Counted from the first letter of the stretch, positions 1-20,557 are shown. The stretch is DNA of 64,000 bases from Trypanosoma brucei (GCA_000002445.1 CM000208.1:3104001-3168000), one strand, 5' to 3'. The notes: generated by a model not told the origin, from the letters alone. Numbers and translations: made by a program.

Positions 1-393
1 CTTCGTTTGGACCGAGTTATTGACGTGCTGGAGGAAGGCGGGGACGGCACAGGCACTTCTGGTAGCGACCGCGCGTCAACAGTCATCGAGCTGAGTGAAT
101 CTGCGCAAGCGATTGCTTCTTCCCTGCTGTCTCTACTGGGGACCCTGACACCCGCACAACGCCACAGGACGCTTATGCTCTTCTGTGAACGCTGGCGCGT
201 CGCACTTCCTCGTAGCTTGGGCGCCGTATGGGACGATGACGGCTGTCGTGAGGTTATACGGCGCGTCGCCGCAAAGGTTGGTCACGTTGTAGATTTTCAT
301 TCACTGGGAACGAGTGAGCGCTCGTCAAGCACGTTGTCAAGCGCATCGGTAATTATTATCCCCAATCGGACCACGGATTTTGATAAGTTTTAA
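1..393 (+). CDS. Probable 3' end of a plus-strand protein-coding gene, 5'-truncated by the window edge. The frame is open from position 1 to the stop at 391-393.
   Basis: The ORF-track ORF at 7-393 begins on a TTG and stays in frame back to base 1 (ctt cgt), so it is open to the window edge. The amino-acid composition looks protein-like rather than low-complexity. No recognisable domain. Confidence 0.35.
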   Translation, partial: LRLDRVIDVLEEGGDGTGTSGSDRASTVIELSESAQAIASSLLSLLGTLTPAQRHRTLMLFCERWRVALPRSLGAVWDDDGCREVIRRVAAKVGHVVDFHSLGTSERSSSTLSSASVIIIPNRTTDFDKF

Positions 394-1129
394 GGGTTTT
401 GGGGGGTTAATGGCACAACAGGAGCCCGAGTCACGTGCCAATACGCCCTCCCGAGCAAAACTCTTTGCCAGATGTAAAGTGGCTTTGTTGGTTTTCCACT
501 CTCCGCCGGGTGTCTTGTTTTGTTTCTATTAGCTAGTGCCATTATAAAAAAATTTGTGGTGAAAACGTTTTTTACAATTTCCTCCCTCCCTATGGACAGA
601 TATTTTAATAAATAGGAACTAACACATGTGCTTACTAACAAAAGTTATGTTGTTGTGCTGGTATCTGAGCGTAGTTGTTGCGCACATATGCGCTAATGGG
701 TTATCGACCTCTCCCGTATTCTACGTTATGGGAGGGGGGGGGGTTTGGTCTTTTGTGTTTTTCCCTGCAGTTGGTACTTAAGCATCATTATGTAACCATG
801 CGCCAAGGAAATTCACCTCCGGCACTGCTAACAAACCTATTTAGGTTACATTAGTGGTAAATATTTTTTTTTTTCAAGTAATAGTGAACCTCTTTTTTCG
901 AAATATTTTCTTAGCAGCATGCATGTCTTATGGGGCGAGCGCTCAACAACGTCTCCGGCGGTGAAATCTTATTTTTTTTTCGTTCCCGATAGCCTGATGG
1001 CCTTAACAAACAAGAGAGAGTCTCTGTCACCCTTTCTTACTTACGGTACCCGTCCCTGTGCTTCGTCAGTGACGTCGCGGTAGCTACACCTGCAACTTTC
1101 AATGGAGAGATTTCCTGCAGGCTGTCGTG

Positions 1130-1185
1130 TACTTTTTCCCTTTTGCTTTCTCTTGTTTTTTTTTTCCGTCCACAACGCACAAAAG
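1130..1185 (+). promoter_or_regulatory. Plus-strand polypyrimidine tract followed by AG (ctttttcccttttgctttctcttgtttttttttccgtccacaacgcacaaaag). Candidate polyadenylation/SL-acceptor signal for plus-strand transcription downstream of the 1-393 gene fragment.
   Basis: Read directly. The strand orientation is opposite to the polypyrimidine tract at 4796-4845. Confidence 0.35.
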
Positions 1186-1519
1186 TGGGATTGGGTTTTG
1201 TGGTGATGACACCACCCCAGTACTTTAGCGGAACATGTTGAGCGTATGAAAACTAAAGCTTATGGGAAAATATCTCATGTGATGCCAGTCGTGCCAACGT
1301 GAGTCGGAGACCAACGTCTCCACGCTACTTGGAGAGACTGAGAATCACTGGCGTACCATACCTGCAAAGCCTCGGGGTGTGCGCTAGTGTTTTATCGGTA
1401 TGATCGCATGCTGCAGGATGCGACAGTTTATTTCTGCCCCCTGTGTCGGGTGCGTGCTCCCCACAGTCCTGGTTAGTGGGGCGAGCAGCTACGATGTTAA
1501 GTGAAAAAAAATTTTAATT

Positions 1520-1591
1520 GATGGCGGAAAAATGGCCGGATGTCGTGCAACATAACAGTAACACACAGCATCGGGCCATTTTTCCGCCATC
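1520..1591. repeat. Perfect 18-bp inverted repeat (gatggcggaaaaatggcc / ggccatttttccgccatc) with a 36-nt spacer. A 10-bp palindrome cggctagccg follows at 1593-1602.
   Basis: Checked base by base. 1520-1537 is the exact reverse complement of 1574-1591. Predicted strong hairpin in DNA or RNA. Confidence 0.95.
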
Positions 1592-3957
1592 GCGGCTAGC
1601 CGTGTGAATACATGGTTCCGCTCACATTTACTAACCCCGAGCGGAGGTGCTTGCTGCCACACGGCTTCAGCCTGCAGGAGATGGGTAGTGTATTATAATT
1701 GTTGTATCCGAAGCACTGAGAGCTGTGCAATGCAAACCTTGTTGGTTGATATTTACACTTGTTGATGGGATTTTCATGCGCGAACCTTCTCCTCATTCGG
1801 ATGAAATTTTCTTTCTTTTAGTCGTGTGGACACGTCTTAACAGTCTTTCGTTGCAAGTCTACCCAGCTCTTTCTTTCCTTTTGTCGTTGTTTACCTGCGA
1901 TTCAAAAAGAATGTGTACCTGAAGAAAAATTATCATGTAATCATTTCATCGAGTGTGTGGTGTGTTATCCCCAAAGCTTGTTGCTTGACGTCGCCGCTAC
2001 CCAGTTGGCACATCGCCCTCCCTTCGTATCACGCCTCACTAACAGGGTCAAGTGGGTGTGTTTTGGTTATGTTTGTTTCGAACTGTGAGGACACAATTCC
2101 ACTCGATTAGAGGCGTTTGTGGAGGGCAACTGTTGGTGCTGTCGTCCACTCACCAAATGTACTTCAGTGAAGCCACTTACTCAGGCGGTAATTACGCTAA
2201 ATCTGTATTTGTTTCTTGTTTTGACCCATCGCGGAGAAATGCCGGTTTGGGGGGAGGGGAGAGGGGCAACACGTGAAGTGCTCCTCGAAGGAGGTCGGTG
2301 GGAAAAACAGAGTGAATGGGAAAAGGGCAGTTGGAAAAGCTCCCCCGAGTGGAACGCCGGTTATGAATGGTGGGAGCAGGTGTATGGACTCGGTTGCTAA
2401 AAGAAGCCAGGGGAAAGGCTTGCCGCAAGGAGTGGATCTCTCAAAGAAGGAAAGGATACACGCTGGTGCCGAAGAAGAGAGCTCCGTTTAGGGAACAAAA
2501 AGGAACAAAGTGGATGTGCAGCGTCCACTCTCTCCGTGGCCTTCCGTTTGTTGAAATTAGTGGGGTATCGGTGGGCATTGCCGACACGTACGGTACATTT
2601 TATCTGCTGACTTCACTTTCACTGAGACAGTTGCCACCTACAGTGCTGACGGTGGGGCCAGTTGAGACACCAACACCGACATTGGGAACACCTGTGTGAA
2701 CTCTAATTTCCCCCCTGTTGTCGATCCCACAGTTGGTATCAGGGAAAATAATATATTCGTTCTCGTGGGAAGGTGTAGCTCTTCCAGTAAGCATTGGACA
2801 TGGAAACATTACGGTGAAAACTGGGATATACTCATGTACAATGGTACTGAAAAAGAAAGCAGGATCTGGTATGCCAGTCGTAACCGTAAAGTGGAACAAA
2901 CCCCAAAAATTGAAATATCTTTTACCAGCGCTGCTTCCCCTTGGAGATAAATCTCCATTACGGTTCCTCGGTGGTGCAGGAAGCGCGGCCAGCACATCAA
3001 GTGATCCGCTTGCCTTCCCCACGTACGCGAAGAACACACGGAGGCATACAGCTGCAAAGATGTTGTATTAGGTTGGCGATGGCAAAATGTGGCCCCTTGC
3101 CGTAGGTGAGACGCCCGTTGGTGTGATGGGGACTTTTGTTTCTCGGTGAAATAGATTTCTTAATGGTAGGACCTGCCCGGAATACCGCACGATGCTCGAG
3201 TCGAAAGGCGTTGGTGCAACGTGGAATGAGCTGCTTGGAACTGTGCCCAGCGCGGTTGGTAACTCACCAAACCATAGACGACCCGGAAACACCGAGAGGA
3301 CCATCATATTAAACGTTGAAGACGTTCTCGTGATCTTCTTTACTCGGCCGAAAACACGAGGGGGACTCCGGCGGCGTGATCGCCCCCGCCCATGGCCAGC
3401 GAATGGCAGTCGGACATATACCTCGCGACATTGAATAAATTCCTTATATTTCTTTCTTCTATGTGAACGGCAGATCGCCCACCTGCTCGAATGAACAAAA
3501 CTGCCACAGAAGTTCTCACCATTTACCTTGCACGCCCTGTGGGCAAATTCGAGGTTGTCAAGTCTACGGTGAGGTTATGGAACTAACAAAGTAAACTGCT
3601 GTGCGGTACGTGGCCTTCCGTGACGGAATCCCTGCGCCGCCTGCACCGTCAGTTTGCTCGGAGGCCCCCCTGGTGTAAGAGTGTGGATTGATGATCTTGA
3701 CACTGTTGTATAGTTGCCAGCCGTTATTGTGGGGAAAGGAAAAGCAGTTTCAAACGAGCGAACCGTCACATGGCGAGCGCGGCAGTGATGTTGCACGTGC
3801 ACGCCCTCATCCTTAGCCAAAGGTGTTTTTTTACGCGCTGCTTCCGTTTCGGGAAACCTCACGAGGGCTGCAGCTCGAGATTTTTATTTGGCATACTTCG
3901 ATGATTTCCCACAACCTTTGCACACCAATTTGGTAAATACGGGAGGTACGGGGGCCG

Positions 3958-3960
<3 letters not shown>

Positions 3961-4003
<43 letters not shown>
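3961..4003. repeat. (AC)21 dinucleotide microsatellite.
   Basis: Read directly: 43 nt of uninterrupted acac... Confidence 0.95.
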
Positions 4004-4004
<1 letters not shown>

Positions 4005-4379
4005 CAACCATAGCTTTTAAAGGAGTAGGTGTAAACGATACATCAACAGAATTTTTGTTTTGCTTGGGAAGTGCCACTTTAGGGGATGGGGAACAATTTA
4101 TGGTCGATGATGAGGCTTCCCGGGCATTTTGGAAAAGAAGGATGGAATTGCTCAGGGTCTGGTGGTTAAAGTTTTGCAACGGGAGTGTGCCGAGCCCCTT
4201 CCCACAACTTTTTCCTCACTCGAGTGAGTGGCCCGACTTTTACGTGTCGTCTCCCGGTTGTTTCGGTGGCGATGCTTCTGAATGTTTTCAGTCTAATGAA
4301 CAGGAAGAAGGAGCCGTGCCCCTCAGTAGGAAAGGTGGCGTACGGTGGATCATTTCGCACAGCATTGGAGGGCTTCGGA

Positions 4380-4401
4380 TGTGTGTGTGTGTGTGTGTGT
4401 G
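4380..4401. repeat. (TG)11 dinucleotide microsatellite, complementary in sense to the (AC)21 tract ~380 bp upstream.
   Basis: Read directly: tgtgtg... 22 nt. Confidence 0.95.
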
Positions 4402-4795
4402 AAATCCTTCCCATACTGCAGGGATAAAAAAGGGTTTCCCGGATTCTATCCTCTTGTCTGTGTTTCCCGATGTCGCGGCAGACCCCTTTTAGGCTGCTAC
4501 CGTGGATTTTACATGCAGTAGGGCTTTGCTGAGAGAAGGTGCGCGGGTAGGTCAAAAGAAAAAGACAAAAAACGTAGGGAAAAGTGATCATTTCGCCAGC
4601 GTCTGAAAAGAAAATCCCCACTTTACCAATTTTTCTAACGGCGAGGGGCTTCACCACGAATAATTTTATAAGCGCAAGTTCGTGCGTCGCCGGTGTCAGG
4701 GGAAGTGGGCTTCATCAGGGCAAACGGCAGTGACACCAACATTCGCTCGCTCCTGTACAAAAAGAAAATGAATAAGGTGCAAAAGGTAATAAATC

Positions 4796-4845
4796 AAAAG
4801 AAAAAAAAGGAAAAGGGCGAAAAGGAAAAAAAACGAAACGTCTTA
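4796..4845 (-). promoter_or_regulatory. Long polypyrimidine tract on the minus strand (purine-rich on plus: caaaagaaaaaaaaggaaaagggcgaaaaggaaaaaaaacgaaacg), ~0.85 kb downstream of the stop of the 1251-aa gene. Candidate polyadenylation / trans-splicing signal.
   Basis: Read directly. In trypanosomatids, polypyrimidine tracts direct coupled polyadenylation of the upstream mRNA and SL addition to the downstream one. Confidence 0.4.
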
Positions 4846-5670
4846 ACTAAGTTGGTGTACAAGACACGAAAATTTATATCGTCCCTTCAATAAGGAGCGG
4901 ACTTCATGTTGAACGCCCAGGCACACACAATCTCCCCGTCAGTTGTGGTGGGAAGCGACTAGAGAGGACGCGGTGTGCCAAACTTTCTCGTCACCACTGG
5001 ACCCCGTAGTGCTGTAACTGTGTTTTCGTGTGTGCAGAGGGGAGGATCATATTCTGCCGCGTCGGTACGACACATGGCGCCGCATTTTGTTAGTGTCAGA
5101 AGGACACGCCCTTCGTGGCAGTAGCCGCGGATGGCGGACGGTTTTCTTTTTTCTCCCCCCCCCCTGCACATCTCTACCCCTCATGCGCAAACCTTTCCAT
5201 CGTTAATTTGCCGTCATGGTACAACATTCCCCCAATCGTTCCGGGCGGTCGTTCTAATACACAACGTAGTCCCAATCCTAACCCTTTTCCGGTTCCAACA
5301 TTTTGATGCAATATTTTTTTCCGCATGGAGTAATGACCCTTTCCTCGCAGCACCATGCATTTCCGTTACACAGTTCCCATGTTTCCACGCAGTCGCAGTG
5401 TGTGCGACCACCGCTTCTGAGTTCTCTGTTTAACAAACAATATAATGCACATGCCCACCGAGTAAAACACCCCGCAACCAGCCAAAAGGGGGAAAAAAAG
5501 ACGTCCGCTACTCGATTCCCGCTTCTTCACCGCACTCACCTTTACGAGCGCAGCATGGTACGGAGCGTACACGGCACTCACCATCCTCGATGGCGTTTGC
5601 GGCGTCTCTGGAGCTGGCTCCGGTTGCAATAACCCTTTTTTTTCCCCTGTCACCCACGTTCTTCGCTATG

Positions 5671-8600
5671 TTAGCTGTGAAACCAGCGGACGAGGTATTC
5701 GGGATAACTTCGCGTACCGGGTGACGGCACCGACAATTCCCACTGACCTGCCGCGGGCCCGCTGCCTCTCACCATCGCGCATCGCTGCACAACAAAGAGG
5801 CCGGTGTCAGGCCCCGCTGACGGTACGCAACATGTTTCCATTTCGTCCTCATCACTCACCACAGCCCCCAGTGCGACGCGGAACACGATTGCCCACGTGG
5901 CCCACGGGTTGTCATCGTTGCGTGTTTGTTTTTTGGCCTCCATCCACGGCGGAACAAATGCAAACCGGCATTTTTCTTCTTTAGTCCCCTCGAGACATAT
6001 TTGCCATGCCTCCTCCTCGTCCTTGCAGTTGTACCACAAGAATCGTTCGTTGACCTCACAATCGTCGCTGCACGGTAAGAAGTGAGGTTGCTCTCTCAAC
6101 GCCACCGGCACTGAAAAAGAACTACACCCGCGCGCCAGCACCAGTTGCTGGCGATATTTCCAATATGTTTCCCACAAGTAAATGTTACGGTTGAGAAACA
6201 CCGCGGTGCCCTGAGGTGATCGGTGCATGAGAACGCGGTTGTCTGGAAACAACGAGACAGGCCCCATGTTTTTTTGCGCTGTCCAATACGGCGGGTAGGA
6301 AACCTCCTTGGTAAAGAGGTATTGACGTTCGTCACAATCATAGTTTACTTTGATAAGGCGCCGTACGAAGCCTCTTGCATCCAGCAGACTCCAACGAGGC
6401 TCCAGTTTACCCGTCAAACGGTCAGCGACTTCCAGAAACACATTAAACATTTCCCTTATCTGTTGCTCGGCCTGGCCGCATCCAGTCACCACACCTGAAG
6501 AGGCCCTGTCGTCACTAGCGTTGCGATGGGGAGAAGATTTGGTCTGCGGCAGGGTGCCACGAAGGTATGGGAGTACTTCAGCGTGTAGAGTCACTCCAAA
6601 GTCAGCAGCGTCATCCTGAGCGGTTTTCGTCCCGTATTTGTGCACCTTCAGGGAGTTTGAAAAAAATCCGAGCGTCGTATTTCCAAAGTCATCATGTGTG
6701 AAGTTGGACATGCAGATATCGCCATGGGTTACCTGGCACGAGTGAATGTCAATAATAGCCTGCAAGGCGCCGTGGAGCCATCGAACCCCGTGTTGTTTGA
6801 TTCTTTTTAAGATGTCCTGGGGTGAGCTAAATCGCACTTGTGTTCCGCCCCGGGGTAGATGAAAATATATTTGATTTGTGTGCTCATCACCGAATACTTC
6901 AATTGCAGAGGTCACGCGACAGGACGCGCACGTCTCCTGAAGTCGCAGCTCACGTTCCATGAGGGTTTTGAATACCTTGGTTGTTTGTACCGAAGACTCA
7001 TTTTCATATTTTGGGAATGTATACCGCTTGAGCCAGCATGGTGTAACGGTGCCGCTGATGGGATCCACATACTCAGCGCACAACAGGGCAAACTCGATTT
7101 CGCTGATCTCTTTTCCATCTTTTAACACCATCCCCTGATAGGTTGCAGGTTTGTGGGGTTCCAATACATTTCGGGGCTCAACCACAACGTGCTTGTAACT
7201 CACTAAGGTACGTTCACGCTCGTATTTTACATAGCGCCGAATTTCACATTTTTGGTGCGCGCAACGGGCGCAGGAGGAAGGCAGCAATTTGAAGAACCCA
7301 ATATTTTCTGGCAGGTGCACACTGTAGATATTGTATAACTCGCACGTGGCGGCGTCTACCTCCGTAAACACTTGGTGAAAAAGCAAACTTTCCTTTGTGT
7401 CCCCTTCACGTTGTTCGCTCGACTTCAATTTTTCCTTCTTAGCGGTAGATTTGGAGGTTCGCCCCCCTACGTCATGCGTTGCGTGCCGCAGTGACGCAAC
7501 ACTCTTCATTTTGCTGTCCCGCGCTCTGTAATATTCCTTGCACGTTTCCCGTAGTCGCTGGTGCGTATCAACAGCGTGTGCTCCCGAAAGCGCAAACCCC
7601 GCAATAAGCCCGATGATTCTCACCTCATCCGCGAATTCCAGCGTCCTCTCATCTTCTGTTTCATCAGATTCTTCCAACGAATCGCTGTCGCCGGTGCAGA
7701 GTGCTTGTATCGCGGTCTGTATGTCAAACAGCGCACTGAGTGTCTGTCCCGTCCCCGCCACCACTGTTACATCAGCAGTGGCACCGGTGTGCTGCTTGAA
7801 AAAGCTGTGGGCGAGGCTTTGCGCGGTTTTCCACAACTCAAATGCCTCGATCAACTTGCCGGTCACGTGCTTTGGAAAGCAAGTTGCGACAATTGTCCTC
7901 CTTAGATCCTCACGCTTTGCCACCGCCTCACATTTTGTGCACCACCGGAAATCACAGCAGGAACGCTCGACGGGTAAAACGGTCGTTGCGGTATCCCTCG
8001 CAGCGACTTCATCCGCGATGTGAACAAATACATGCATTCTGATGAACATGTGCACGTTGACCTTGAGCCGCGACCATCCCTCACAATCCCTGTGCAGCTG
8101 TTTCAACCACGAAAACGGAACTGCCTCGGTTGTGAGTTGGTAACAACGCTGAATAGCGGCTAGTACTACACAGATGCTGTGCTGCGTCGTCGAAGCTTTC
8201 GTTTCCGAAACTGCGTATTCCTCATCAGCGACACTTTCATCCGGCTCGTCCACGCTAAGTTCCTCCAGTTCGCTCAACTCCAGTGGGGTCCCCGCTTCTA
8301 ACGCCAAGAGTCCACTGTCACACAGCTCTTGGGCTTCTTGTGAAGAGTTCTTTCCAGTACGAAACAGCGATTGCAGAAAGCTCACAACGGCATTCTTCTT
8401 TCGTTTTCGGGGGCGCCGCGCACCATCTGTGTGGATTGCTTCCTCATTTTCTTGACACAAACGCCGGCAATCCTCATGCCAGCCCTGGCAGAAGGCGTAG
8501 ACCTCAAAGTCATGGTTCAGCACACCCGTCAACTCACCGCTCCCGCCTCTGTCGGGGTGGTGCACGAGCAAAAGTGCTCTGTAAACCTTTCTGCACTCAT

Positions 8601-9426
8601 TGCGTTCGTTTACAAAACCCCACTTCCGCTGCAGCTGAACTATCGCAAAATGCTGGAAGGATATAGGCATCAACGCAATATTAGCCGAGGCACGGTACTC
8701 GCTAATATCCGTGAGACCCTCCCACCCGCATGCCACTCGGTAATCTCTGTAGTGTTGGACGATACGGCATGTCTCAAAGGAGAGCAGGCAATGCTGTGGT
8801 TCGAGTAGTTCCTCGAAGCGCCTCCGGGCCCCCTGTTCGTTACGGGGGTACCCGTACTGTCTCCTAAGCTTAATTTTAAGAATTAGACGATCAACATGCC
8901 GAGTGAGTAGCGTTACAACGCAGAAGTTTAAAGCAACAGAAAGCACTGTAGTTGCAATAACTTGCCCAACCACTGGAATGGAACCCAACCCGATCAGCGA
9001 TCCAATGGCGTATCCAATCGCCAAGCCAGTGGCTGCGGTTCCAACCTCCTTGCCAATGCGCAACGCCAAATCCGTACGATCCATTGGCAATCCCAATACG
9101 TTAAGCGCCCCACGCCGGTAGTCGCTGACAGCGCGGAATGACTCGTATGCAGCGACCGCTGCCGCCGCTATCGGGTTGGCCACAGTTGCCGAAAAGACAA
9201 GGTTGGTTGTGATGCTCACACCCGTGCGAGCAGCACCATCAACAATATCTCCCCTCTTCAAAGCAAGAACCGACTCGTGGGAGTTTGTTGGGGAAACGGT
9301 GTGATCCGATGCATTCTGAGGTGTAAGCGACAGTTGAATGTTTTCCTGCGTCGGGTCCTCCTCTCGTCGTTTTGATTCATCATCATCAACAATAATAAAC
9401 TCACTGGCATCTTCCTTATCCGTCAT
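5671..9426 (-). CDS. Large multidomain protein (1251 aa). It has hydrophobic transmembrane segments (about aa 131-175), a DnaJ/J-domain with an HPD motif (about aa 280-300), and a C-terminal region with alpha-kinase-like motifs.
   Basis: One ATG-initiated 1251-codon ORF. The N-terminal stretch GLAIGYAIGSLIGLGSIPVVGQVIATTVLSVALNFCVVTLL is hydrophobic. KVYRALLLVHHPDRGGSGE matches the J-domain helix II/III plus HPD loop. Near aa 900-935, THGDICMSNFTHDDFGNTTLGFFSNSLKVHKYG resembles the TDPQI..DFGDGNLG..FF..H.CN segment of alpha-kinases such as eEF2K, but the catalytic Gln of that motif is not conserved. Confidence 0.8.
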   Translation of the reverse strand: MTDKEDASEFIIVDDDESKRREEDPTQENIQLSLTPQNASDHTVSPTNSHESVLALKRGDIVDGAARTGVSITTNLVFSATVANPIAAAAVAAYESFRAVSDYRRGALNVLGLPMDRTDLALRIGKEVGTAATGLAIGYAIGSLIGLGSIPVVGQVIATTVLSVALNFCVVTLLTRHVDRLILKIKLRRQYGYPRNEQGARRRFEELLEPQHCLLSFETCRIVQHYRDYRVACGWEGLTDISEYRASANIALMPISFQHFAIVQLQRKWGFVNERNECRKVYRALLLVHHPDRGGSGELTGVLNHDFEVYAFCQGWHEDCRRLCQENEEAIHTDGARRPRKRKKNAVVSFLQSLFRTGKNSSQEAQELCDSGLLALEAGTPLELSELEELSVDEPDESVADEEYAVSETKASTTQHSICVVLAAIQRCYQLTTEAVPFSWLKQLHRDCEGWSRLKVNVHMFIRMHVFVHIADEVAARDTATTVLPVERSCCDFRWCTKCEAVAKREDLRRTIVATCFPKHVTGKLIEAFELWKTAQSLAHSFFKQHTGATADVTVVAGTGQTLSALFDIQTAIQALCTGDSDSLEESDETEDERTLEFADEVRIIGLIAGFALSGAHAVDTHQRLRETCKEYYRARDSKMKSVASLRHATHDVGGRTSKSTAKKEKLKSSEQREGDTKESLLFHQVFTEVDAATCELYNIYSVHLPENIGFFKLLPSSCARCAHQKCEIRRYVKYERERTLVSYKHVVVEPRNVLEPHKPATYQGMVLKDGKEISEIEFALLCAEYVDPISGTVTPCWLKRYTFPKYENESSVQTTKVFKTLMERELRLQETCASCRVTSAIEVFGDEHTNQIYFHLPRGGTQVRFSSPQDILKRIKQHGVRWLHGALQAIIDIHSCQVTHGDICMSNFTHDDFGNTTLGFFSNSLKVHKYGTKTAQDDAADFGVTLHAEVLPYLRGTLPQTKSSPHRNASDDRASSGVVTGCGQAEQQIREMFNVFLEVADRLTGKLEPRWSLLDARGFVRRLIKVNYDCDERQYLFTKEVSYPPYWTAQKNMGPVSLFPDNRVLMHRSPQGTAVFLNRNIYLWETYWKYRQQLVLARGCSSFSVPVALREQPHFLPCSDDCEVNERFLWYNCKDEEEAWQICLEGTKEEKCRFAFVPPWMEAKKQTRNDDNPWATWAIVFRVALGAVVSDEDEMETCCVPSAGPDTGLFVVQRCAMVRGSGPAAGQWELSVPSPGTRSYPEYLVRWFHS

Positions 9427-10260: not shown

Positions 10261-11007
10261 AAGTCGCCAATGCTATTGCAACTTTTCCGGGCGATATCGC
10301 ACAGTTGCGGTCAGCAAATACGAATACTAAACTGAAGGGACGTCCGTGCGCCGCGAGTACCTTCCACTGACTTCTTCCTGCAATTAATACCAAACGACTA
10401 ACAGTGCATCGGAAAAAGGGAGTTGGGAAAGGTACCGAGGACAGCGCGGATGGTTTCCCTTATGCAAACAGAGGACACATTAAGGAGCACATCGCTCTCA
10501 ACGATCAAAAACACTTGCTGAGAGAAATGTTCCCCAATCCGTCGCATGAGCTTAATTACGAAGACAAGTAAACGTATAAATATAAATATATATATATAAA
10601 TATATATATATATTATCCCAAAACACGACTTCCATATTGAAACAAACCCTGCTAACGCTACGCTTTATCTACCTTTTAACATCCCCTTCGGCACTAATTG
10701 CATCGGGAAGTGTTGTTTACCGCACAACGTCACTCACTGGAACACGCGCACAGGAAGGCGGAGCATGCTGGAAAGGGATTAATTATGAAACCACAACAAC
10801 TTTATCAGGCAAGGAGGAGGGCGGGGAAAATACACTGGTAAGTGATGCAAAGCGCATTGTAAGAATCACACACGCTATTGCAATAAACAAAAGAGGAGCT
10901 GCGTAACACTTGTAATGTTCCAATTAACCCCATGCACGTTTCGTAAATAGATGTGTTGCGCCAGCCGACAGGCTGTGAATCTGACCACGAATTCGAGCAC
11001 GTACAGA

Positions 11008-12771
11008 TTACGCCTTCTTTGCCTTTCTGTTTTTGTAACACTGACAGCAAAGCGCAACGGATATGGCACCTACAAAGATAAGCAGAAGAAATGTCGCAAG
11101 GAGGAAGCGAAACAACACTTGAAGCAAAGTGCAGTCCGGCCAAACCTGCCCCTGAACCGACTGCATCACGTATGTAACAAAGGGCGTGGGGTAGGTTGGG
11201 GGATAGTGTCGGTCGGGAATGCCAGCACCACGTTCGTCACGTTCTTGGCGAAACATGGTTTCACATTCTTGTTGTTTAGCTAATGTGGCATCCTCAATCC
11301 ACCCATACTCGTTTGCCTTTGCTTTGTATAGTTGACAACCCGACTTATGTGTAAGGGCACTAAGCGGCAGCGTTAGGTGCAGGGCCACTGCTCCATTTTC
11401 AGGAATGCTGTGAATTAGAATGGAAGCGTTCACATCCCTCTCGAATTGCTCTCGACGTTCCTCGTGCGCGCTTGTCTCTGACAACTCAAACCGAGCCTTT
11501 GAATTCGCTGTTAACTTCAACACACCGAAGTTACGCTCAACATAAACCCCAACCCGTCGTCTGCTCGGAAACAGAGACGTGAGGATTGTTGGCAGCGCAA
11601 CGAAACTAGCCGTGCTATGCGTGAGCCCAGAACTTGTGGCCTCTATAATGGGATATCCAAGTGTCCTCATGGCGGCTTTTCGGGTGTCCATCCCGATTTC
11701 ACCCAAGTGGACGTCACCACTCATAAAGATTACCCGATCAGTCCGGAACTGCCGCAGTAGTGCAAAGAGTCGGTCACGGGATCGGGGGAAGGCAGCCCAG
11801 CTTTCCGACACCTTCTCGTCTAACATAATTTGCACACCATTTGCTACCACCGTAAGAGCACAACGCTCACGACCGGTCGCTGGGTTACGCCCCGCCACGT
11901 CGTCCCTAAGTCGCTCTTCCAACCACTGCCACTGTGTTTCACCTAACATATTTCCACTCCGAGTAGCGTTGGATGGATCTCTGAAGTATCGCGCGTCCAG
12001 TAGCAGAAAACAAAAAGCGTTATCATAAAAATGTTTCATTACATTTACCGCAGCGGTTGCTGCGGTGTCACTGCCAGCCGTAGAACTTAACAATTCAACT
12101 GGAACGGCCTCAAAGTGGTAAACTCCTTGCCGCTTTCTCCTTGGATCAGTGCGAGGCACTCCCAGAAAGTCTAAATAGAACTGCTGCATCGCGTCCTTGT
12201 CGGAGAATTCTGCTCCCCCGTCATTCTTTCCCATGTCATGATCATCCCATACGCCGATGACGCGATGCTCCTCCCCTTCCCCTTCCCCTTCCACACGTTT
12301 GCCAACCTCTTCACTAGAAGATGGAATGTTAGTACGTTTTCGCTTAGCAACGCAAGTGTGGCGGAAAGCAACGTATTGCGGGGCGTTAGCTTGATGGACA
12401 AACTTGGCCTGTGCAGCCTTTAAGTCAAGTGGCGGTGGAGTTTTCCGGAGTATCACAGTTCTGTCCGCGTACACGGCGTCACCAGTCCATATCAGTGCAT
12501 CTACCGGGCGCCGCGAAATGCATTGTCCCATTTGTTTGGCTACGGAGCCGTTGAGGCGTTGCTCAACCGTAGTGGCGATGACGTCCCAGTAGTTTTGATC
12601 ACCGTCGTGTCGGTTACAACTGAGAAACACAGCCTGCCCCATGGTGTGGTTTATCCCATACACCTCAGCACCAATGCTTCTCCGCACCGTCGATTGAAGT
12701 GCCAACAGAATGAAGGCGATCAAAACCATTAAAACAACCGGTGCCGTTCTGTAAACGCCTCGCCTTAACAT
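11008..12771 (-). CDS. PhoD-like / calcineurin-like metallophosphoesterase (587 aa), with an N-terminal signal or transmembrane segment and a C-terminal transmembrane segment.
   Basis: Long ORF. The motifs IWTGDAVYADR, WDDHDMGKNDGG and VIFMSGDVHLGEIG resemble the metal-binding motifs of PhoD-family phosphatases (GDxxYxD, WDDHE, GD.H). There are hydrophobic stretches at both termini. Confidence 0.6.
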   Translation of the reverse strand: MLRRGVYRTAPVVLMVLIAFILLALQSTVRRSIGAEVYGINHTMGQAVFLSCNRHDGDQNYWDVIATTVEQRLNGSVAKQMGQCISRRPVDALIWTGDAVYADRTVILRKTPPPLDLKAAQAKFVHQANAPQYVAFRHTCVAKRKRTNIPSSSEEVGKRVEGEGEGEEHRVIGVWDDHDMGKNDGGAEFSDKDAMQQFYLDFLGVPRTDPRRKRQGVYHFEAVPVELLSSTAGSDTAATAAVNVMKHFYDNAFCFLLLDARYFRDPSNATRSGNMLGETQWQWLEERLRDDVAGRNPATGRERCALTVVANGVQIMLDEKVSESWAAFPRSRDRLFALLRQFRTDRVIFMSGDVHLGEIGMDTRKAAMRTLGYPIIEATSSGLTHSTASFVALPTILTSLFPSRRRVGVYVERNFGVLKLTANSKARFELSETSAHEERREQFERDVNASILIHSIPENGAVALHLTLPLSALTHKSGCQLYKAKANEYGWIEDATLAKQQECETMFRQERDERGAGIPDRHYPPTYPTPFVTYVMQSVQGQVWPDCTLLQVLFRFLLATFLLLIFVGAISVALCCQCYKNRKAKKA

Positions 12772-13885: not shown

Positions 13886-15202
13886 CTAGTGAGCCAATAG
13901 TGACATCTGTTTTTTCAGTGCCTTCCATTCTAGTTTCTCCTTCTCAAGAACAGTAACTGCATTCGTTGCCTCCTTGAGCTTCGTCTCTTGCCTCTTGACA
14001 TTAATATCGTGCTCTTTGAGCCGCTTGGCGACATCCTCTTCCAACTCCTCGTACCGCCTGTGCATCCTTAGAGCATACCTTTCCATGGTTGCCACTTGCC
14101 TGCGGAGGCCGTCCAGTTCCGGATCGTTGGAGACTCGGGGGAGATATTCCCCCGTGAACCTCGCCGGATCTGTCGTTCTAGTTGCATTTGTTTCGACTGG
14201 GCTCAGTATTTCTTCACCATTCACCAAACGTGGCGATGCAAGTTCCTGCTTCTCAGTATCAGCTTCCACTCGCACCGACGTGCCGTCGCCCTTTTCATCT
14301 CCGCACTTCTTTTCACCTTCCAGTGGATCGGAGTGCCGATTCTCTGCAATCAATAAGTTACCGTTGAGCAACAGTCCATTGTTTTGAGATGTTTTGTTGT
14401 GCCTGCGCAGCCGACTCTGAAGCTCACTGCGCTCTTCAAGTGCACGTTGGATGGCAATTCGGAGTTCCGCCACCTCCGCTTCTGCTGCCTCTCCCATAGC
14501 TTGCAACATGCTGCGACCGCTGCGTTGCATACTTCCCACTTCCTGTTTATATTCGTGTTCGATGCGGCTCAGAGTCCTTTCCTGCAACACCATCTGCTGT
14601 GTATATGTTTCTATGCACTCCACCTGCATGGCGAGTTCTACTTCACGATCACGAGCCATTCGGCTCATCTTGCGAATACTTTGGTGGAACACGGTGGCGG
14701 GGTGATCTAGGGCGTGCGACATGCTGCTTCGGAAAAAGCGGTAGATGCCGTTCGCATTGCGGCGTAATAAGTTGATGTTCTCCCATTCCTCAACCGATGG
14801 CGTACAGTCGCATTCCGTGTCGTTATTCAATTCCTCGTCTGACTGCGTGCGCGACTTTCCCAATGCCGTTTCCACATCACTGAGTTGCTGCAACAACATG
14901 TCCCGACGCCTCTGCTGGTGAAGGAGTTGCGTTTTCCTTTCGAAAAGCATGCCCTCGAGCATATCGAGGTGCTCGATGGAGTGTAAATAACTCCGCACGG
15001 CATCCGTCTCAGCGTTGACTTCCTTTACTCGTTCCAAAATCATTCCCTTTTTTCTATCTAAATCGTTGATCTGATCTTTCAGCTGGCTAAGGAGGGATTC
15101 CTTTTGCCTTTGCTCTACTTCCATGTCCTCCTCTCTCTGTTTTAAAGCTGCAAGCTTTTGTTGAGCAGCTTCAATTTTTCTTTCCAACTCATCGTCTTTC
15201 AT
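13886..15202 (-). CDS. Coiled-coil protein (438 aa), hypothetical.
   Basis: Long ORF in the PTU orientation. It has heptad-like, charged, Q/E/R/L-rich sequence throughout, for example LKQREEDMEVEQRQKESLLSQLKDQINDLDRKK. No catalytic motif. Confidence 0.6.
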   Translation of the reverse strand: MKDDELERKIEAAQQKLAALKQREEDMEVEQRQKESLLSQLKDQINDLDRKKGMILERVKEVNAETDAVRSYLHSIEHLDMLEGMLFERKTQLLHQQRRRDMLLQQLSDVETALGKSRTQSDEELNNDTECDCTPSVEEWENINLLRRNANGIYRFFRSSMSHALDHPATVFHQSIRKMSRMARDREVELAMQVECIETYTQQMVLQERTLSRIEHEYKQEVGSMQRSGRSMLQAMGEAAEAEVAELRIAIQRALEERSELQSRLRRHNKTSQNNGLLLNGNLLIAENRHSDPLEGEKKCGDEKGDGTSVRVEADTEKQELASPRLVNGEEILSPVETNATRTTDPARFTGEYLPRVSNDPELDGLRRQVATMERYALRMHRRYEELEEDVAKRLKEHDINVKRQETKLKEATNAVTVLEKEKLEWKALKKQMSLLAH

Positions 15203-17140: not shown

Positions 17141-18346
17141 TCATATTTGTTTCCAGAGTTCTCGGTCACTTCCGAGCTTCGTTAACTCAAATACTGACGA
17201 GAAAACCACGCCACCCACAACTGATGCGCCTACGTTTGCAACAGTACCCTTAAACAACCCTCGCCATCCCTCCGCTGATAAAAGGTCACGTACTACAGTA
17301 CGCAAAGAGGTGTACTGGGCGCCCTTGACAGCTCCAGAAACTGTAGGGAGAGCCTGCATCCTCGTATGTAGCACATCAACGGGATTAAATAAAAACGATG
17401 TTACGCAACTTGCGACCACACCCGCAAAGGCGTTCAGTGCGGGGTTGTCTGTTGGGGAAAGAAGCCAATTTTGCTGCCATGGTGACTTTTTCTCCCCAAC
17501 GAGGCTCATCTCCCGCTCCCAGCGCGAGAGGGTTGGTTCTGCCATTGTATATAGAATAGCTTTTGACCTGCTGTAGAGTGCCCACCACACGCCACTTGCG
17601 GGGAGTGTCATGATACCGGGCAGAAGCCCAGCGTAGAGACCACGCAATTTGTATCGAGCAGTGCCCCAACTTGTACCGATGCCGGGTTGCTTGTAGAGAT
17701 TACTGACCTCCCGTAAAGTGTCACGGAGTGATCCGTAGGTGTTGCTGCTACTCATGCCATACCCCGCAGTCATTTGGCGGTTGCACACAACCACAATGGG
17801 AGTTACAAGAAGAAGTGATGCTAGCTCCCCCGCCATGCCACCCACAGCTGCTGAGAAACTGTTGGTCCGGAAATCACGGCCGCGCTCAGGAGCAACGTTC
17901 GCGTCGGCGAATGCGACATCCAGTGCCTCTTTCGTCCATTCCATCGTGTGGAGATAGACCAGTTCGCCTATAAGGTTTCCTATCATTGCCGCCCCAACAC
18001 CACGATAAATAGCCCGAAGACCCCTCACTTTCTTACTCGAGTTGTTGCCACCGCCCACTTCACCACGGTATGCAGAGGCTATGATGGAGAATACGGATGG
18101 AGGTTTCGCTTCCCTTGTGATGCGCTTACGGGATATGGCAAGGTAAAGTGGATGCAGCAGCAACGTTCGTAGCATTGCGTTAAAGCTGACTAACACAAAC
18201 CATGTATCTTTGTGAAGATCAGAGAAACTGCGGTTCACTGCATTTCTAGACAGTGACGTTGGTGACGGTGCGCTAGACGGATACTCAACCTTTGATGAAC
18301 TACCAGATGTAATGTCGTCAACGGCAGCGATGTTGGTGATACTCAT
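17141..18346 (-). CDS. Mitochondrial carrier family protein (401 aa, with an N-terminal extension).
   Basis: Repeated carrier signatures such as PVDVLHTRMQ (Px[DE]xx[KR]xR-like), glycine-rich transmembrane helices (GLYAGLLPG, GVGAAMIGNLIGE), and a tripartite arrangement. Confidence 0.7.
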   Translation of the reverse strand: MSITNIAAVDDITSGSSSKVEYPSSAPSPTSLSRNAVNRSFSDLHKDTWFVLVSFNAMLRTLLLHPLYLAISRKRITREAKPPSVFSIIASAYRGEVGGGNNSSKKVRGLRAIYRGVGAAMIGNLIGELVYLHTMEWTKEALDVAFADANVAPERGRDFRTNSFSAAVGGMAGELASLLLVTPIVVVCNRQMTAGYGMSSSNTYGSLRDTLREVSNLYKQPGIGTSWGTARYKLRGLYAGLLPGIMTLPASGVWWALYSRSKAILYTMAEPTLSRWEREMSLVGEKKSPWQQNWLLSPTDNPALNAFAGVVASCVTSFLFNPVDVLHTRMQALPTVSGAVKGAQYTSLRTVVRDLLSAEGWRGLFKGTVANVGASVVGGVVFSSVFELTKLGSDRELWKQI

Positions 18347-18910: not shown

Positions 18911-20368
18911 CTACTCGACTACCACAACCTCATTGTCAAGAACGCGTCCGTTCCCAATGATCAGAGGCTCTTCCTTCAAATTTTTAATAACCACATTCCC
19001 TCTAACGGAAACGTCGGCACCAAATTCCACCAATCCACGGACGGTAAGTGATGTGCATTGTCGCAAGGATGGCACTCCTCCCTTCACAAGCTTTTCGAAT
19101 CCGTCAATCATCTTGTAATGCTCACCGTCAAGATCAATAGCTGGTGGCTTTCCATTTCGCTCCTCACACAGAACAAGACGCTGATCCTCCGTCACCTGAT
19201 ACGCATCAGACCTTAACGCAAGTAGATCACTGCAAGTCTTCACAGGTGCAAACCGCTCCCTTGGAACCACTACTGCTTCCGATCTATCAAATAGAGAAAT
19301 TGCGGCACCCATCGCCACCTCCAGCTGGTACACCTTCGTTGATTGACTGTCCTGCGGGTTCACCGTCTTGGGGTTTCGCATCACTGGAAGCCGCAGCACT
19401 CCCAACTGCTCGTCCATCATCTTCTTCAATTCCATGAGATTTATCCAAATGTTGTTCGTATTAAAGAAACAGTGCTTCGCGATGTTTTGAAAGCTATCCT
19501 CATCTTCTTTTGGACACTGAGCAGATTCGCGAAGAACAAAACGTCGTCGCGTTTGTCCAGTAGTCTCGTCAATGACATCCTTGTACGCCAAGTGGCCTCC
19601 CTTTTTGTCTGACTCCGTACGGCGACACACCTCCATGAGAAACCCCAGCTGTTTTTCGTGCATATAGTCCAGAAGCCTCACATCTAGTGTCGCGCCAAGG
19701 TTGTCTCCGTTTGATATAAACATGTAGCGGTAGCCTTTGCCCAACAGGTAATCCAACTTACCACTACTGTAAAGCACCGTATATACGTCCCCGTGTCCTG
19801 GTGGTACCCACTCGCACGTTGGGTCAGCCTCGTAGGTGACGGGAAAGAAATTGTCTTGCCTTATCTTGGGCACTCTGTTTTGCATGAGTTCGATGTCTGA
19901 GTCAAACACCTCGTACAAGGTAGGATACTTCCGAAGAAAATTCTTAGTTTCTCCCGATGTGGAAAACGAGTTCATCAGCATAAACGGCACGTTACAGTTA
20001 CGCACTTGACGAAAATGCTCCAACTGCAGGGCTGTGAAGTCAAGAAACGTCTGGCCATTCTTCACCTGTAGCAGGCTCTTGGGGCCGTTCAACCCCATCC
20101 CGGTACCAAGACCGCCGTTGAGTTTAAGAACGACCGCTTGTCGCAGTAACGCAGTGTTTTCTCCCTTCGTTTCGATACCCTGAAGGAAGGGAAGAGATTC
20201 CACCGGAAATATTGACTTCTCGGGTATATAGCCGGTTTCTCCTTTCCGGACAAGAGCGTGTTGGATGAGGAAAATATGAATACACTTCTCCTCAACACCT
20301 GATGCCTGCATTTTTTCCAAGCAGGCCAAAGCTGCCCCTGAAAAGGCTGAAGGAGGGTTTAGCGGCAT
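18911..20368 (-). CDS. UGP: UTP-glucose-1-phosphate uridylyltransferase (UDP-glucose pyrophosphorylase), 485 aa.
   Basis: LKLNGGLGTGMG nucleotide-binding loop, NSFSTSGETKNFL, VPPGHGDVY, and a C-terminal left-handed beta-helix region typical of eukaryotic UGPase. The ORF-track ORF (18911-20521) begins inside an upstream (TTG)n repeat that translates as poly-Cys. The first credible start is the Met of MPLNPPSAF, the cat triplet at 20366-20368. Confidence 0.85.
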   Translation of the reverse strand: MPLNPPSAFSGAALACLEKMQASGVEEKCIHIFLIQHALVRKGETGYIPEKSIFPVESLPFLQGIETKGENTALLRQAVVLKLNGGLGTGMGLNGPKSLLQVKNGQTFLDFTALQLEHFRQVRNCNVPFMLMNSFSTSGETKNFLRKYPTLYEVFDSDIELMQNRVPKIRQDNFFPVTYEADPTCEWVPPGHGDVYTVLYSSGKLDYLLGKGYRYMFISNGDNLGATLDVRLLDYMHEKQLGFLMEVCRRTESDKKGGHLAYKDVIDETTGQTRRRFVLRESAQCPKEDEDSFQNIAKHCFFNTNNIWINLMELKKMMDEQLGVLRLPVMRNPKTVNPQDSQSTKVYQLEVAMGAAISLFDRSEAVVVPRERFAPVKTCSDLLALRSDAYQVTEDQRLVLCEERNGKPPAIDLDGEHYKMIDGFEKLVKGGVPSLRQCTSLTVRGLVEFGADVSVRGNVVIKNLKEEPLIIGNGRVLDNEVVVVE

Positions 20369-20468
20369 CGTGTGACACAACAGCACACACTGACACCGTT
20401 CCGAGGTATCTGATCTTATGAGCTTGCGTATTTTTCTGTTCGTTCTGAATTGTGTGCGCGTTTTTAAA

Positions 20469-20470
<2 letters not shown>

Positions 20471-20557
<87 letters not shown>
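20471..20557. repeat. Compound microsatellite (ACA/CAA)14 followed by (TCAA)11, in the 5' flank of UGP. On the coding strand it reads (TTGA)11(TTG)14.
   Basis: Read directly. This repeat creates the spurious poly-Cys, poly-Gln and poly-Asn ORFs in the track. Confidence 0.95.

Follow-up and report, generated by a model that had tools for sequence, protein, structure and literature searches.

What does the long reading frame at this Trypanosoma brucei locus encode, and does its product belong, as a first-pass annotation proposed, to a membrane-localised phospho-signalling module in which a J-domain is fused to an alpha-kinase-like (pseudo)kinase? Within the 64,000-nucleotide window, which is the whole stretch of DNA that was analysed, a single frame running from ATG to stop (5671..9426, minus strand) specifies the 1251 aa that had been claimed, followed by a stop codon, and corresponds to XP_827793.1 (UniProt Q388T9). 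The 90%-identity cluster of P0001, which is 99% identical to it, holds entries from T. b. brucei TREU927, T. b. gambiense and T. equiperdum. The gene is single-copy and conserved in trypanosomatids, and because the protein is conserved at full length in 30 kinetoplastid sequences, the frame represents a real gene; the database searches of this analysis returned no occurrence outside kinetoplastids. The reading that we favour, with a probability of roughly 0.6, is that of an acidic tail, a Gly-rich hairpin anchor, a J-domain with its HPD tripeptide, a linker, a pseudokinase of the eukaryotic protein kinase (ePK) fold and a pseudo-PARP, which together would make a membrane-localised Hsp70 adaptor carrying two dead enzymes and not a phospho-signalling enzyme.

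How might such an adaptor work? We envision that the hairpin tethers the protein to an organelle or the ER membrane with both ends in the cytosol, and that the J-domain would there recruit cytosolic Hsp70 and trigger its ATPase. The pseudokinase/pseudo-PARP cassette may descend as a single unit from a kinase-PARP ancestor that was probably active; presumably non-catalytic today, it could serve as a platform for binding partners or clients, and might thus lend specificity to chaperone recruitment. We found the combination of anchor, J-domain, pseudokinase and pseudo-PARP in no characterised protein. Its unusual part is the union of the J-domain with both pseudoenzymes, as a J-domain and an ePK domain alone have a precedent in GAK/auxilin-2 (DNAJC26), which holds the two in one polypeptide and whose J-domain brings Hsc70 to a membrane-associated process. 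GAK differs in having the reverse order, its kinase being active and N-terminal and its J-domain C-terminal, and in its PTEN-like and clathrin-binding regions, and it has neither a membrane anchor nor a PARP fold; no sequence relationship between it and the T. brucei protein was detected.

The N-terminal region (aa 1-60; 9247..9426, minus) is poorly conserved, differing in length and sequence among orthologues. Its acidity had been pointed out before and is plain from the first 30 aa (12 D/E vs 4 K/R); by composition, it resembles neither a signal peptide nor a basic presequence. There follows a conserved pre-anchor module (aa 62-130; 9037..9243, minus) for which a Pfam search returned no family. 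In the alignment, G106, L111, G112, D119 and L122 of this module are invariant and N84, P85, Y94, Y103, I124, G125, K126 and E127 nearly so, and the module includes a moderately hydrophobic helix (aa ~72-93, mean hydropathy 1.45). The hydrophobic multi-helix segment previously placed at aa 131-175 resolves into two conserved stretches, aa 131-150 and 155-176, which are separated by the invariant P151, G154 and Q155 and form a Gly-zipper-like hairpin (aa 131-176; 8899..9036, minus). Kyte-Doolittle windows reach a maximum of 2.27 here, and the means over 29 orthologues are 1.68 and 1.57 for the two stretches, consistent with the conserved hydrophobic helices of about 20 residues that mark hairpin-anchored proteins. 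Judged by hydropathy, the hairpin is probably a membrane anchor, with insertion and topology as predicted above, and the weaker third hydrophobic segment at aa 72-93 could alter that topology.

Between anchor and J-domain lies a highly conserved region (aa 177-252; 8671..8898, minus) with invariant D179, R180, Y193, F204, L214, V223, Q224 and Y226 in its first part and Y229, R230, G234, W235, E236, D240 and Y244 in its second; a family search of this region gave no match. Beyond the J-domain, a long linker (aa 321-734; 7225..8466, minus) contains a basic patch, acidic stretches of low complexity and conserved islands separated by variable inserts, and gave no match to a Pfam family or a PDB entry. 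Its last ~45 residues (aa 690-734), which adjoin the kinase N-lobe in sequence, are modelled by AF2 as helices with a pLDDT of 79-90.

In the two-domain AF2 model of the C-terminal cassette (pTM 0.75; pLDDT 77.7), built like the other AF2 models from an alignment that is shallow (23 sequences), the pseudokinase is followed directly by the PARP fold. Outside kinetoplastids, the nearest relatives combine kinase and PARP in one fusion protein and lack a J-domain, and among 1.84 billion proteins these fusions are the PARP-containing matches beyond the family itself that reach E<=1e-3 with the C-terminal profile. Single-stretch matches extend across the kinase C-lobe and the PARP domain in P0035 (profile positions 216-597) and P0037 (151-488), both of which are Pkinase+PARP by Pfam. 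Further kinase+PARP fusions are P0041-43, P0056 and P0058, and a DnaJ match was found in none of these or of the former two. Such proteins, from dinoflagellates and uncultured protists (e.g., Symbiodinium natans CAE7536487.1), share the collinear order of (pseudo)kinase then PARP and have similar catalytic loops of their own (IHGG, IHGN, VHGD). However, their PARP domains are recognised by Pfam and retain H-Y-E, they lack the J-domain, no hydrophobic hairpin was seen in them, and other modules, such as YTH, occupy their N-terminal part. The fusions are uncharacterised.

Conceivably, the cassette is an old signalling unit common to kinetoplastids and dinoflagellates, enzymatically intact to this day in the latter, whereas in kinetoplastids a membrane-anchored J-domain took it over and it became a double pseudoenzyme. 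That pseudoenzyme would sense ATP via the Lys-Glu pair that it retains, or NAD+/ADP-ribose via its PARP cleft, and thereby control where Hsp70 is recruited, namely at a specific organelle membrane. We regard this elaboration as unlikely. If true, metabolic state and chaperone targeting would be linked in a new way, and a hidden second member of the PARP family would be added in organisms that have been described as having a single PARP.

Is the kinase-like domain still a kinase? Its assignment to the ePK fold (aa ~735-1030; 6337..7224, minus) is based on structure and profiles alike. Foldseek found 1608 matches to the model in the PDB at E<=1e-3, led by FGFR1, HPK1, MARK2 and Ack1, and the best 50 of these are all ePKs, although TM-scores for the C-terminal models are moderate (0.45-0.6). 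Hhalign aligns the domain with Polo-like kinase (probability 95.6%, E=1.3e-8), the C-terminal profile search recovers real kinases, and Pfam reports Pkinase (PF00069) at 15.8 bits (E=0.0098), under the gathering score of 31.7 bits. The domain thus combines a bilobal ePK fold, a beta3 Lys and an alphaC Glu with a sub-threshold Pfam score and the loss of catalytic residues and Gly-rich loop. The retained pair, K800 and E826 (6949..7029, minus), is invariant, each residue in 30/30 orthologues; E826 is in register with the alphaC Glu of Polo-like kinase, and K800, which lies within a predicted N-lobe strand (AF2 model residues 105-114), is inferred to be the beta3 Lys from the motif CWLKRY.

The catalytic centre has fared differently. 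The segment comprising catalytic loop, beta7-beta8 turn and DFG equivalent (aa 899-923, VTHGDICMSNFTHDDFGNTTLGFFS; 6658..6732, minus) aligns by hhalign with IIHRDIKLGNFLMDSTGKVKIADFG of Polo-like kinase and is degenerate. Across the 30 orthologues, H901 is universal, but the HRD-Asp (D903) is kept in four and N908 in 14; the catalytic-loop Lys is replaced (C in 12, R in 9, and others), and the DFG-Asp position holds F (10), V (8), T (4) and others, with Asp in a single sequence. The string DDFG belongs to the beta7-beta8 turn and is no DFG motif, whose position is occupied by G920-F921-F922. GxGxxG is absent, an insertion standing in place of the Gly-rich loop (seen in the sequence and as a low-pLDDT model segment, 71-84), and by alignment and hhalign the activation segment is very short and lacks an APE motif. 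Given the loss of the HRD-Asp, the catalytic-loop Lys and Asn, the DFG-Asp and the Gly-rich loop, we class the domain not as a kinase but as an ePK-fold pseudokinase. It is probably catalytically dead, in line with the earlier suspicion that it may be a pseudokinase. CASK, however, works without a DFG-Asp, and T. brucei and T. congolense retain both D903 and N908; since T. brucei keeps these together with K800 and E826, some residual or atypical activity is possible there. An atypical active kinase or a nucleotide-dependent switch, whether Mg-independent as in CASK or allosterically responsive to ATP, is nevertheless distinctly unlikely, even if limited to African trypanosomes: the invariance of K800, E826 and H901 would agree with it, but a conserved function cannot rest on D903 and N908, kept in only 4/30 and 14/30 orthologues, and the remaining catalytic elements and the APE motif are missing.

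On profile and alignment evidence, aa ~253-320 (8467..8670, minus) is a J-domain with helix I, helix II, an intact HPD and helix III, as the first-pass annotation had recognised from the core KVYRALLLVHHPDRGG (aa 280-295). The Hsp70-activating tripeptide H290-P291-D292 (8551..8559, minus; coordinates confirmed by translation) is present in 29/29 orthologues covering the region. Searched against the PDB by hmmsearch, the orthologue profile retrieves J-domains only, namely TIM14/Pam18 (E=0.0017) and the J-domain of SV40 large T (E=1.2), and hhalign against six J-domains, each verified by Pfam as PF00226, gives a probability of 93.9% (E=1.6e-7, 53 columns), rising to 95.2% against Pam18. Pfam itself finds no DnaJ (PF00226) match in the T. 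brucei protein and sub-threshold ones in 5/26 orthologues (best E=0.035), with none of the 26 reaching the gathering score of 27.8 bits. Similarity across helices I-III and the HPD are thus in place, and a score below the Pfam gathering level marks the domain as a divergent member and is no evidence against homology. The protein is predicted to be a kinetoplastid-specific type III J-domain protein with an Hsp70 co-chaperone role.

TIM14 is the best sequence match, with similarity limited to ~30-50 residues, and the resemblance to TIM14/Pam18 and other small membrane-anchored type III J-proteins (DNAJC15/19) includes a hydrophobic anchor and, after it, a minimal J-domain of three helices containing HPD-[KR]-GGS. 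Those proteins, however, are ~17-kDa subunits of the mitochondrial inner-membrane import motor with one TM helix, whereas the T. brucei protein has 1251 aa, an acidic N-terminus unlike a presequence, a two-helix hairpin and a C-terminal extension of 930 aa. Might the J-like segment be a relic that no longer engages Hsp70, in an otherwise pure membrane scaffold? Relic J-like domains such as that of Pam16 typically lose the HPD, which here is invariant even in family members that are ~30% identical, and the basic residues of helix II and the HPDRGG context are kept as they are in Pam18 and SV40 T antigen, whose J-domains are functional. We therefore consider a relic very unlikely, the sub-threshold Pfam score and the atypical sequence downstream of helix III notwithstanding. 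It would also fit a relic that no entry of the orthologue's size stands among the entries covered from Table 1 of a Leishmania HSP40 compendium of 72 members (PMC9141911).

A separate domain at the C-terminus (aa ~1043-1251; 5674..6300, minus) had been overlooked. The C-terminal third is indeed kinase-like, but it comprises two domains, pseudokinase and pseudo-PARP, in place of a single alpha-kinase domain. The best 50 Foldseek matches of the aa ~1043-1251 model are all PARPs. Pfam gives no direct PF00644 match in the T. brucei protein or 26 orthologues; the homology to PF00644 members emerges through relatives, hhalign connecting the domain to the PARP domain of P0035 (probability 97.2%, E=3.8e-11), which in turn matches PF00644 at E=1.7e-22, and the C-terminal profile reaching into the PARP domain of P0040 (E=7.5e-4 among 1.84 billion proteins). 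ERFLWYNC (aa 1127-1134; 6025..6048, minus) corresponds by hhalign and MAFFT to the E-x-L-F/W-H-G-T/S strand of the NAD site (FLWHGT, YLFHGT, LWHGS). Across 30 orthologues, E1127, W1131 and C1134 are invariant. The PARP His, replaced by Y1132 in T. brucei, is mostly C (11), Y (5) or A (5), with H in 4 and other residues in the rest, and the adjacent Gly position varies (A9/P7/T6 and others). In the last PARP strands (5698..5736, minus), aligned by MAFFT to YREFVVYD...CYPEF of canonical relatives, L1231 takes the position of the catalytic Glu (I15/V11/L4), followed by a conserved YPE at aa 1241-1243 (Y1241 29/30, P1242 28/30, E1243 30/30). GxGxYF, the nicotinamide-stacking Tyr motif, is absent in all orthologues, where a variable Pro-rich stretch replaces it, as mapped in a variable and low-confidence part of the alignment.

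With the ART/PARP fold present and neither an H-Y-E nor an H-Y-[ILVY] triad retained, the domain is classed as a pseudo-PARP and not as an ADP-ribosyltransferase. Does it nonetheless bind NAD+ or ADP-ribose, or act as a mono-ADP-ribosyltransferase in some lineages, as a second trypanosome enzyme or reader of ADP-ribosylation coupled to Hsp70? The four sequences with the His (FLWHAC/FLWHTC) are from stercorarian trypanosomes of the T. cruzi clade, active mono-ARTs such as PARP10, 14 and 15 normally have a hydrophobic residue in place of the Glu, and H-Y-E is complete in the relatives P0035, P0037 and P0040. We give this idea only a slight chance, as the His is gone in 26/30, T. brucei among them, the Gly after it is never conserved, the Tyr motif is lost throughout, and the best structural matches include the inactive domains of TASOR, PARP13 and RCD1. 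The inactive PARP folds of TASOR, PARP13/ZAP and plant RCD1/SRO1, among the nearest known parallels, act in unrelated contexts (chromatin silencing, antiviral RNA sensing and plant stress), are 13-15% identical, and occur without a fused kinase fold or J-domain.

That the protein joins a J-domain to an alpha-kinase-like domain has next to no chance of being right: a superficial resemblance to eEF2K motifs speaks for it, and a kinase-like model alone does not exclude it, as alpha-kinases and ePKs are distantly related in fold, but Alpha_kinase (PF02816) has no match at E<=10 in the T. brucei protein or at E<=1 in 26 orthologues, every kinase-type Pfam or profile match is to conventional Pkinase, and the HxDxxxxN loop, alphaF DxxxxG and alphaC Glu are in register with Polo-like kinase in the hhalign alignment. 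The quoted motif THGDICMSNFTHDDFGNTTLGFFSNSLKVHKYG (aa 900-932) equates residue for residue with the ePK HRDxKxxN catalytic loop, the beta7-beta8 turn and a degenerate DFG. An alpha-kinase identity is accordingly rejected on the Pfam result, which the annotation itself had named as decisive, on the ePK motifs and on the ePK-only best 50 in Foldseek; no profile match was found, fold and motifs are nearer to ePKs than to alpha-kinases, and the likeness to eEF2K, TRPM7 and MHCK-A is confined to a general bilobal shape. The domain being an ePK and not an alpha-kinase, the argument that the Gln of a D-x-Q motif is replaced falls away.

The analysis thereby corrects the reading of a conserved trypanosomatid gene and adds a PARP-fold domain that Pfam and PDB HMMER searches did not directly detect. 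For parasite biology, the protein is a candidate organelle-specific Hsp70 adaptor; for pseudoenzyme research, it offers two different dead folds kept jointly under purifying selection, with intact-looking dinoflagellate cousins for comparison. By itself, the finding opens no long-standing question. The protein and its orthologues appear in databases as 'hypothetical', 'protein kinase domain-containing', 'DnaJ domain containing', 'J domain-containing' and 'transferase'.

The target gene occupies window positions 5671..9426 on the minus strand, where the ORF listing gives an unbroken, ATG-initiated frame of 1251 aa. P0001, a protein 99% identical to its product, falls in a 90%-identity cluster that also contains T. 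brucei brucei TREU927 XP_827793.1 (UniProt Q388T9) and the proteins of T. b. gambiense and T. equiperdum. The distribution across kinetoplastids, a question raised by the first-pass annotation, proved broad: each trypanosomatid genus sampled has orthologues of full length, 1250-1450 aa and 28-56% identical, and several more divergent assemblies hold further ones. Judged from this conservation, we are dealing with a real gene under purifying selection. Because the database names of its orthologues already carry 'J domain' and 'protein kinase domain', what is new here is the PARP fold, the reading of the C-terminal part as a double pseudoenzyme, and its tie to kinase-PARP fusions of protists. 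Searching the literature for the candidate IDs Tb927.10.13070-13100 and for trypanosome proteins that join J-domain, pseudokinase and PARP returned nothing relevant; neither a paper on the gene nor a characterised protein uniting these three domains was found.

The C-terminal third had been likened to the alpha-kinase fold and suspected of being a pseudokinase; the suspicion stands, the fold assignment does not. Pfam Alpha_kinase has no match at E<=10 in the target, nor at E<=1 in any orthologue, and the sole Pfam kinase signal in the target is conventional Pkinase (E=0.0098, aa 819-916). When aa 690-1251 were modelled with AF2 (pLDDT 77.7, pTM 0.75, from a shallow alignment of 23 sequences), a fold search matched the model to 1608 PDB chains at E<=1e-3, FGFR1, HPK1, MARK2 and Ack1 being the best. 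The register is set by hhalign against a Polo-like kinase from the profile search (95.6%, E=1.3e-8), which places VTHGDICMSNF opposite IIHRDIKLGNF, the alphaC Glu at E826 and the alphaF motif at D939..G944. On Pfam, fold search and this alignment, we reject an alpha-kinase identity. Two candidate DFG motifs were also rejected: 'DDFG' (aa 912-915), part of DDFGN, aligns to the beta7-beta8 turn, and the 'DFG' of DAADFGV (aa 942-944) aligns to the 'DxWxxG' of alphaF. The DFG position itself is held by G920-F921-F922, within the stretch THGDICMSNFTHDDFGNTTLGFFSNSLKVHKYG (aa 900-932).

Across 30 orthologues, K800 (by its inferred role the beta3 Lys), E826 and the HRD His H901 are present in all. 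The catalytic Asp D903, in contrast, is kept in 4/30 and the catalytic-loop Asn N908 in 14/30; the position of the catalytic-loop Lys (C905) is mostly Cys or Arg, and an Asp stands at the DFG position (F921) in only one of the 30. GxGxxG is absent from the orthologue alignment, a variable insertion taking the place of the Gly-rich loop (low-pLDDT residues 71-84 of the AF2 model). Loss of catalytic residues and of the Gly-rich loop thus argues for a kinase fold without kinase chemistry, and on alignment and model aa ~735-1030 are an ePK-fold pseudokinase. It is conceivable that the domain is instead an atypical active kinase, but this conservation pattern speaks against it and makes it unlikely. 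A divergent orthologue from a Logan assembly (P0030) keeps a DFG triplet at the DFG position ('LGDFGS').

What follows the pseudokinase? The lead came from NERFLW..C, RVALGT and YPEY motifs in the alignment, which recall PARP catalytic domains. When 1.84 billion representative proteins were searched by hmmsearch with a profile of the C-terminal part, 20 scored at E<=1e-3; apart from orthologues, whole or fragmentary, these were P0036, P0038 and P0039, which are ordinary kinases, and the relatives P0035, P0037 and P0040. By Pfam, P0035 carries Pkinase (1.7e-13) and, as second domain, PARP (1.7e-22), P0037 carries Pkinase and PARP, and P0040 carries PARP (2.8e-14); P0043, a longer member of P0040's cluster, has a weak Pkinase match too. 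The sub-alignment of aa 1030-1251 matched the PARP domain of P0035 in hhalign (97.2%, E=3.8e-11), and for a separate AF2 model of these residues (pLDDT 79.1, pTM 0.78, again from 23 sequences) the best 50 Foldseek matches were all PARP catalytic domains, including those of PARP15, 14 and 12, tankyrase 2 and the TASOR pseudo-PARP. For the model that covers both domains, the pTM of 0.75 would be compatible with a definite placement of the kinase and PARP folds relative to each other.

The predicted fold core is invariant (L1084, W1085, Y1088, R1092, E1127, W1131, C1134, W1141, G1147, R1183, G1187, E1243). Aligned with the canonical relatives, the PARP His position, Y1132, reads C11/Y5/A5/H4 among orthologues, with His confined to the T. 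cruzi group; the Gly that should follow is conserved in no case, a Pro-rich stretch of variable sequence stands in place of GxGxYF (a mapping made where the alignment itself is variable), and the Glu position, L1231, is always I/V/L, as in mono-ART PARPs. We conclude from alignment and modelling that the PARP fold is kept but the NAD+ site is not, i.e., that this is a pseudo-PARP. Binding of NAD+ or ADP-ribose, or PARP activity in some lineages, would be the alternative; the same pattern of conservation speaks against it, and we consider it unlikely. The four stercorarian trypanosome orthologues with the His (P0003, P0004, P0006, P0007) read 'FLWHAC' or 'FLWHTC'.

Outside kinetoplastids, the PARP-containing relatives reached by the C-terminal profile are all collinear kinase-PARP fusions, and in P0035 and P0037 a single profile match runs across both domains. 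Around P0035 there are further fusions (P0056, P0058) and PARP-only relatives, among them a 'TCCD-inducible-PARP-like' protein from Naegleria and a PARP from Prorocentrum; one cluster contains Symbiodinium natans CAE7536487.1 (P0043), with YTH, the weak Pkinase match and PARP. Since none of these kinase-PARP and PARP relatives has a J-domain, the cassette appears to be the older unit, to which membrane anchor and J-domain look like a kinetoplastid addition. The DFG of P0030 and the PARP His of stercorarian trypanosomes suggest that lineages have decayed the two active sites to differing extents, which would fit progressive decay from an active ancestor. Relatives from dinoflagellates and uncultured protists (P0043, P0062-P0065) have other modules, either YTH (an m6A-reader-type domain) ahead of the pseudokinase-PARP cassette or MORN repeats combined with PARP, each an uncharacterised architecture in itself.

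The J-domain noticed at first pass is borne out, in divergent form. Searched against all PDB sequences, a 26-orthologue profile had two matches only at E<=10, both J-domains (TIM14/Pam18, E=0.0017; SV40 large T, E=1.2). Against six reference J-domains, all confirmed as PF00226, hhalign aligned aa 236-335 (29 sequences) over 53 columns that take in helices I to III and the HPD (probability 93.9%, E=1.6e-7), and against Pam18 alone it gave 95.2%. The Pfam J-domain threshold is never reached by the target or its orthologues; HPD is kept in 29/29 orthologues, and aa 280-295 read KVYRALLLVHHPDRGG. This conservation speaks against a relic J-domain, which is therefore unlikely. With TIM14 as the best match, membership of the mitochondrial import-motor (Pam18-type) family was considered but judged improbable: no more than ~30-50 residues are similar, the protein begins with an acidic stretch, and it differs in size and architecture. 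In the rows covered of a 72-member Leishmania HSP40 table, no entry has the size of the orthologue (1454 aa) (PMC9141911).

How might such a protein work? As first described, the N-terminus is acidic and a hydrophobic segment follows, here placed at aa 131-176. Residues 1-30 contain 12 D/E vs 4 K/R, and a weaker hydrophobic helix (aa 72-93) precedes the segment. The segment is conserved and consists of GLAIGYAIGSLIGLG, an invariant P-x-x-G-Q and VIATTVLSVALNFCVVTLL, its halves having mean hydropathies of 1.68 and 1.57. Pfam matches no known family here, the sub-threshold signals (EI24, UbiA, DUF4396, bPH_10) being unrelated membrane families. We envision that this hairpin inserts into a membrane and tethers the protein so that its N- and C-termini face one side, most plausibly the cytosolic one because the N-terminus is unlike a signal peptide or presequence. 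The J-domain would recruit and activate an Hsp70, and the pseudokinase/pseudo-PARP cassette would confer specificity by binding a client or other partner. Between anchor and J-domain, aa 177-252 (window 8671-8898) rank among the best-conserved parts of the protein: 15 residues are invariant, Y226, Y229, R230, G234, W235 and E236 among them. They match no known family and may be a J-domain extension or a membrane-proximal interaction site.

GAK/auxilin-2 likewise unites a J-domain and an ePK fold in one protein, but with reversed domain order and an active kinase. In its anchor and minimal J-domain the target resembles TIM14-type proteins, and TASOR, PARP13 and RCD1 are known dead PARP folds. 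The target would be a type III J-domain protein with a lineage-specific client module.

Upstream lie a PhoD-like phosphatase that has hydrophobic segments at both termini (11008-12771), a mitochondrial carrier (17141-18346) and UDP-glucose pyrophosphorylase (18911-20521), all on the minus strand; the latter two we take to be TbMCP14 (Tb927.10.13120) and UGP (Tb927.10.13130). These names and IDs are paired in the literature (PMC4422618, PMC7909634). The target would then lie on chromosome 10, three ORFs past MCP14, and its ID, from neighbour positions, is probably ~Tb927.10.13090. Neither ORF 13886-15202 (438 aa) nor ORF 21916-24474 (852 aa) has a Pfam match. The named neighbours are unrelated to the target and share one polycistronic orientation; this context is uninformative.

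Listed ORFs of at least 250 aa in 1-24000 are all on the minus strand, and a plus-strand ORF (7..393) lies at the window's left edge. Downstream of the target, ~5 kb within 1-5670 hold no ORF >163 aa, no tRNA genes were found in 1-5670, and GC skew is positive over 1-4000 and negative from 4001 on. Positions 1-5670 look like a convergent strand-switch (transcription-termination) region. A perfect intergenic (CA)22 microsatellite lies at 3960-4003, and an AT-rich (TA)n tract at 10575-10613 separates the target from the PhoD-like gene.
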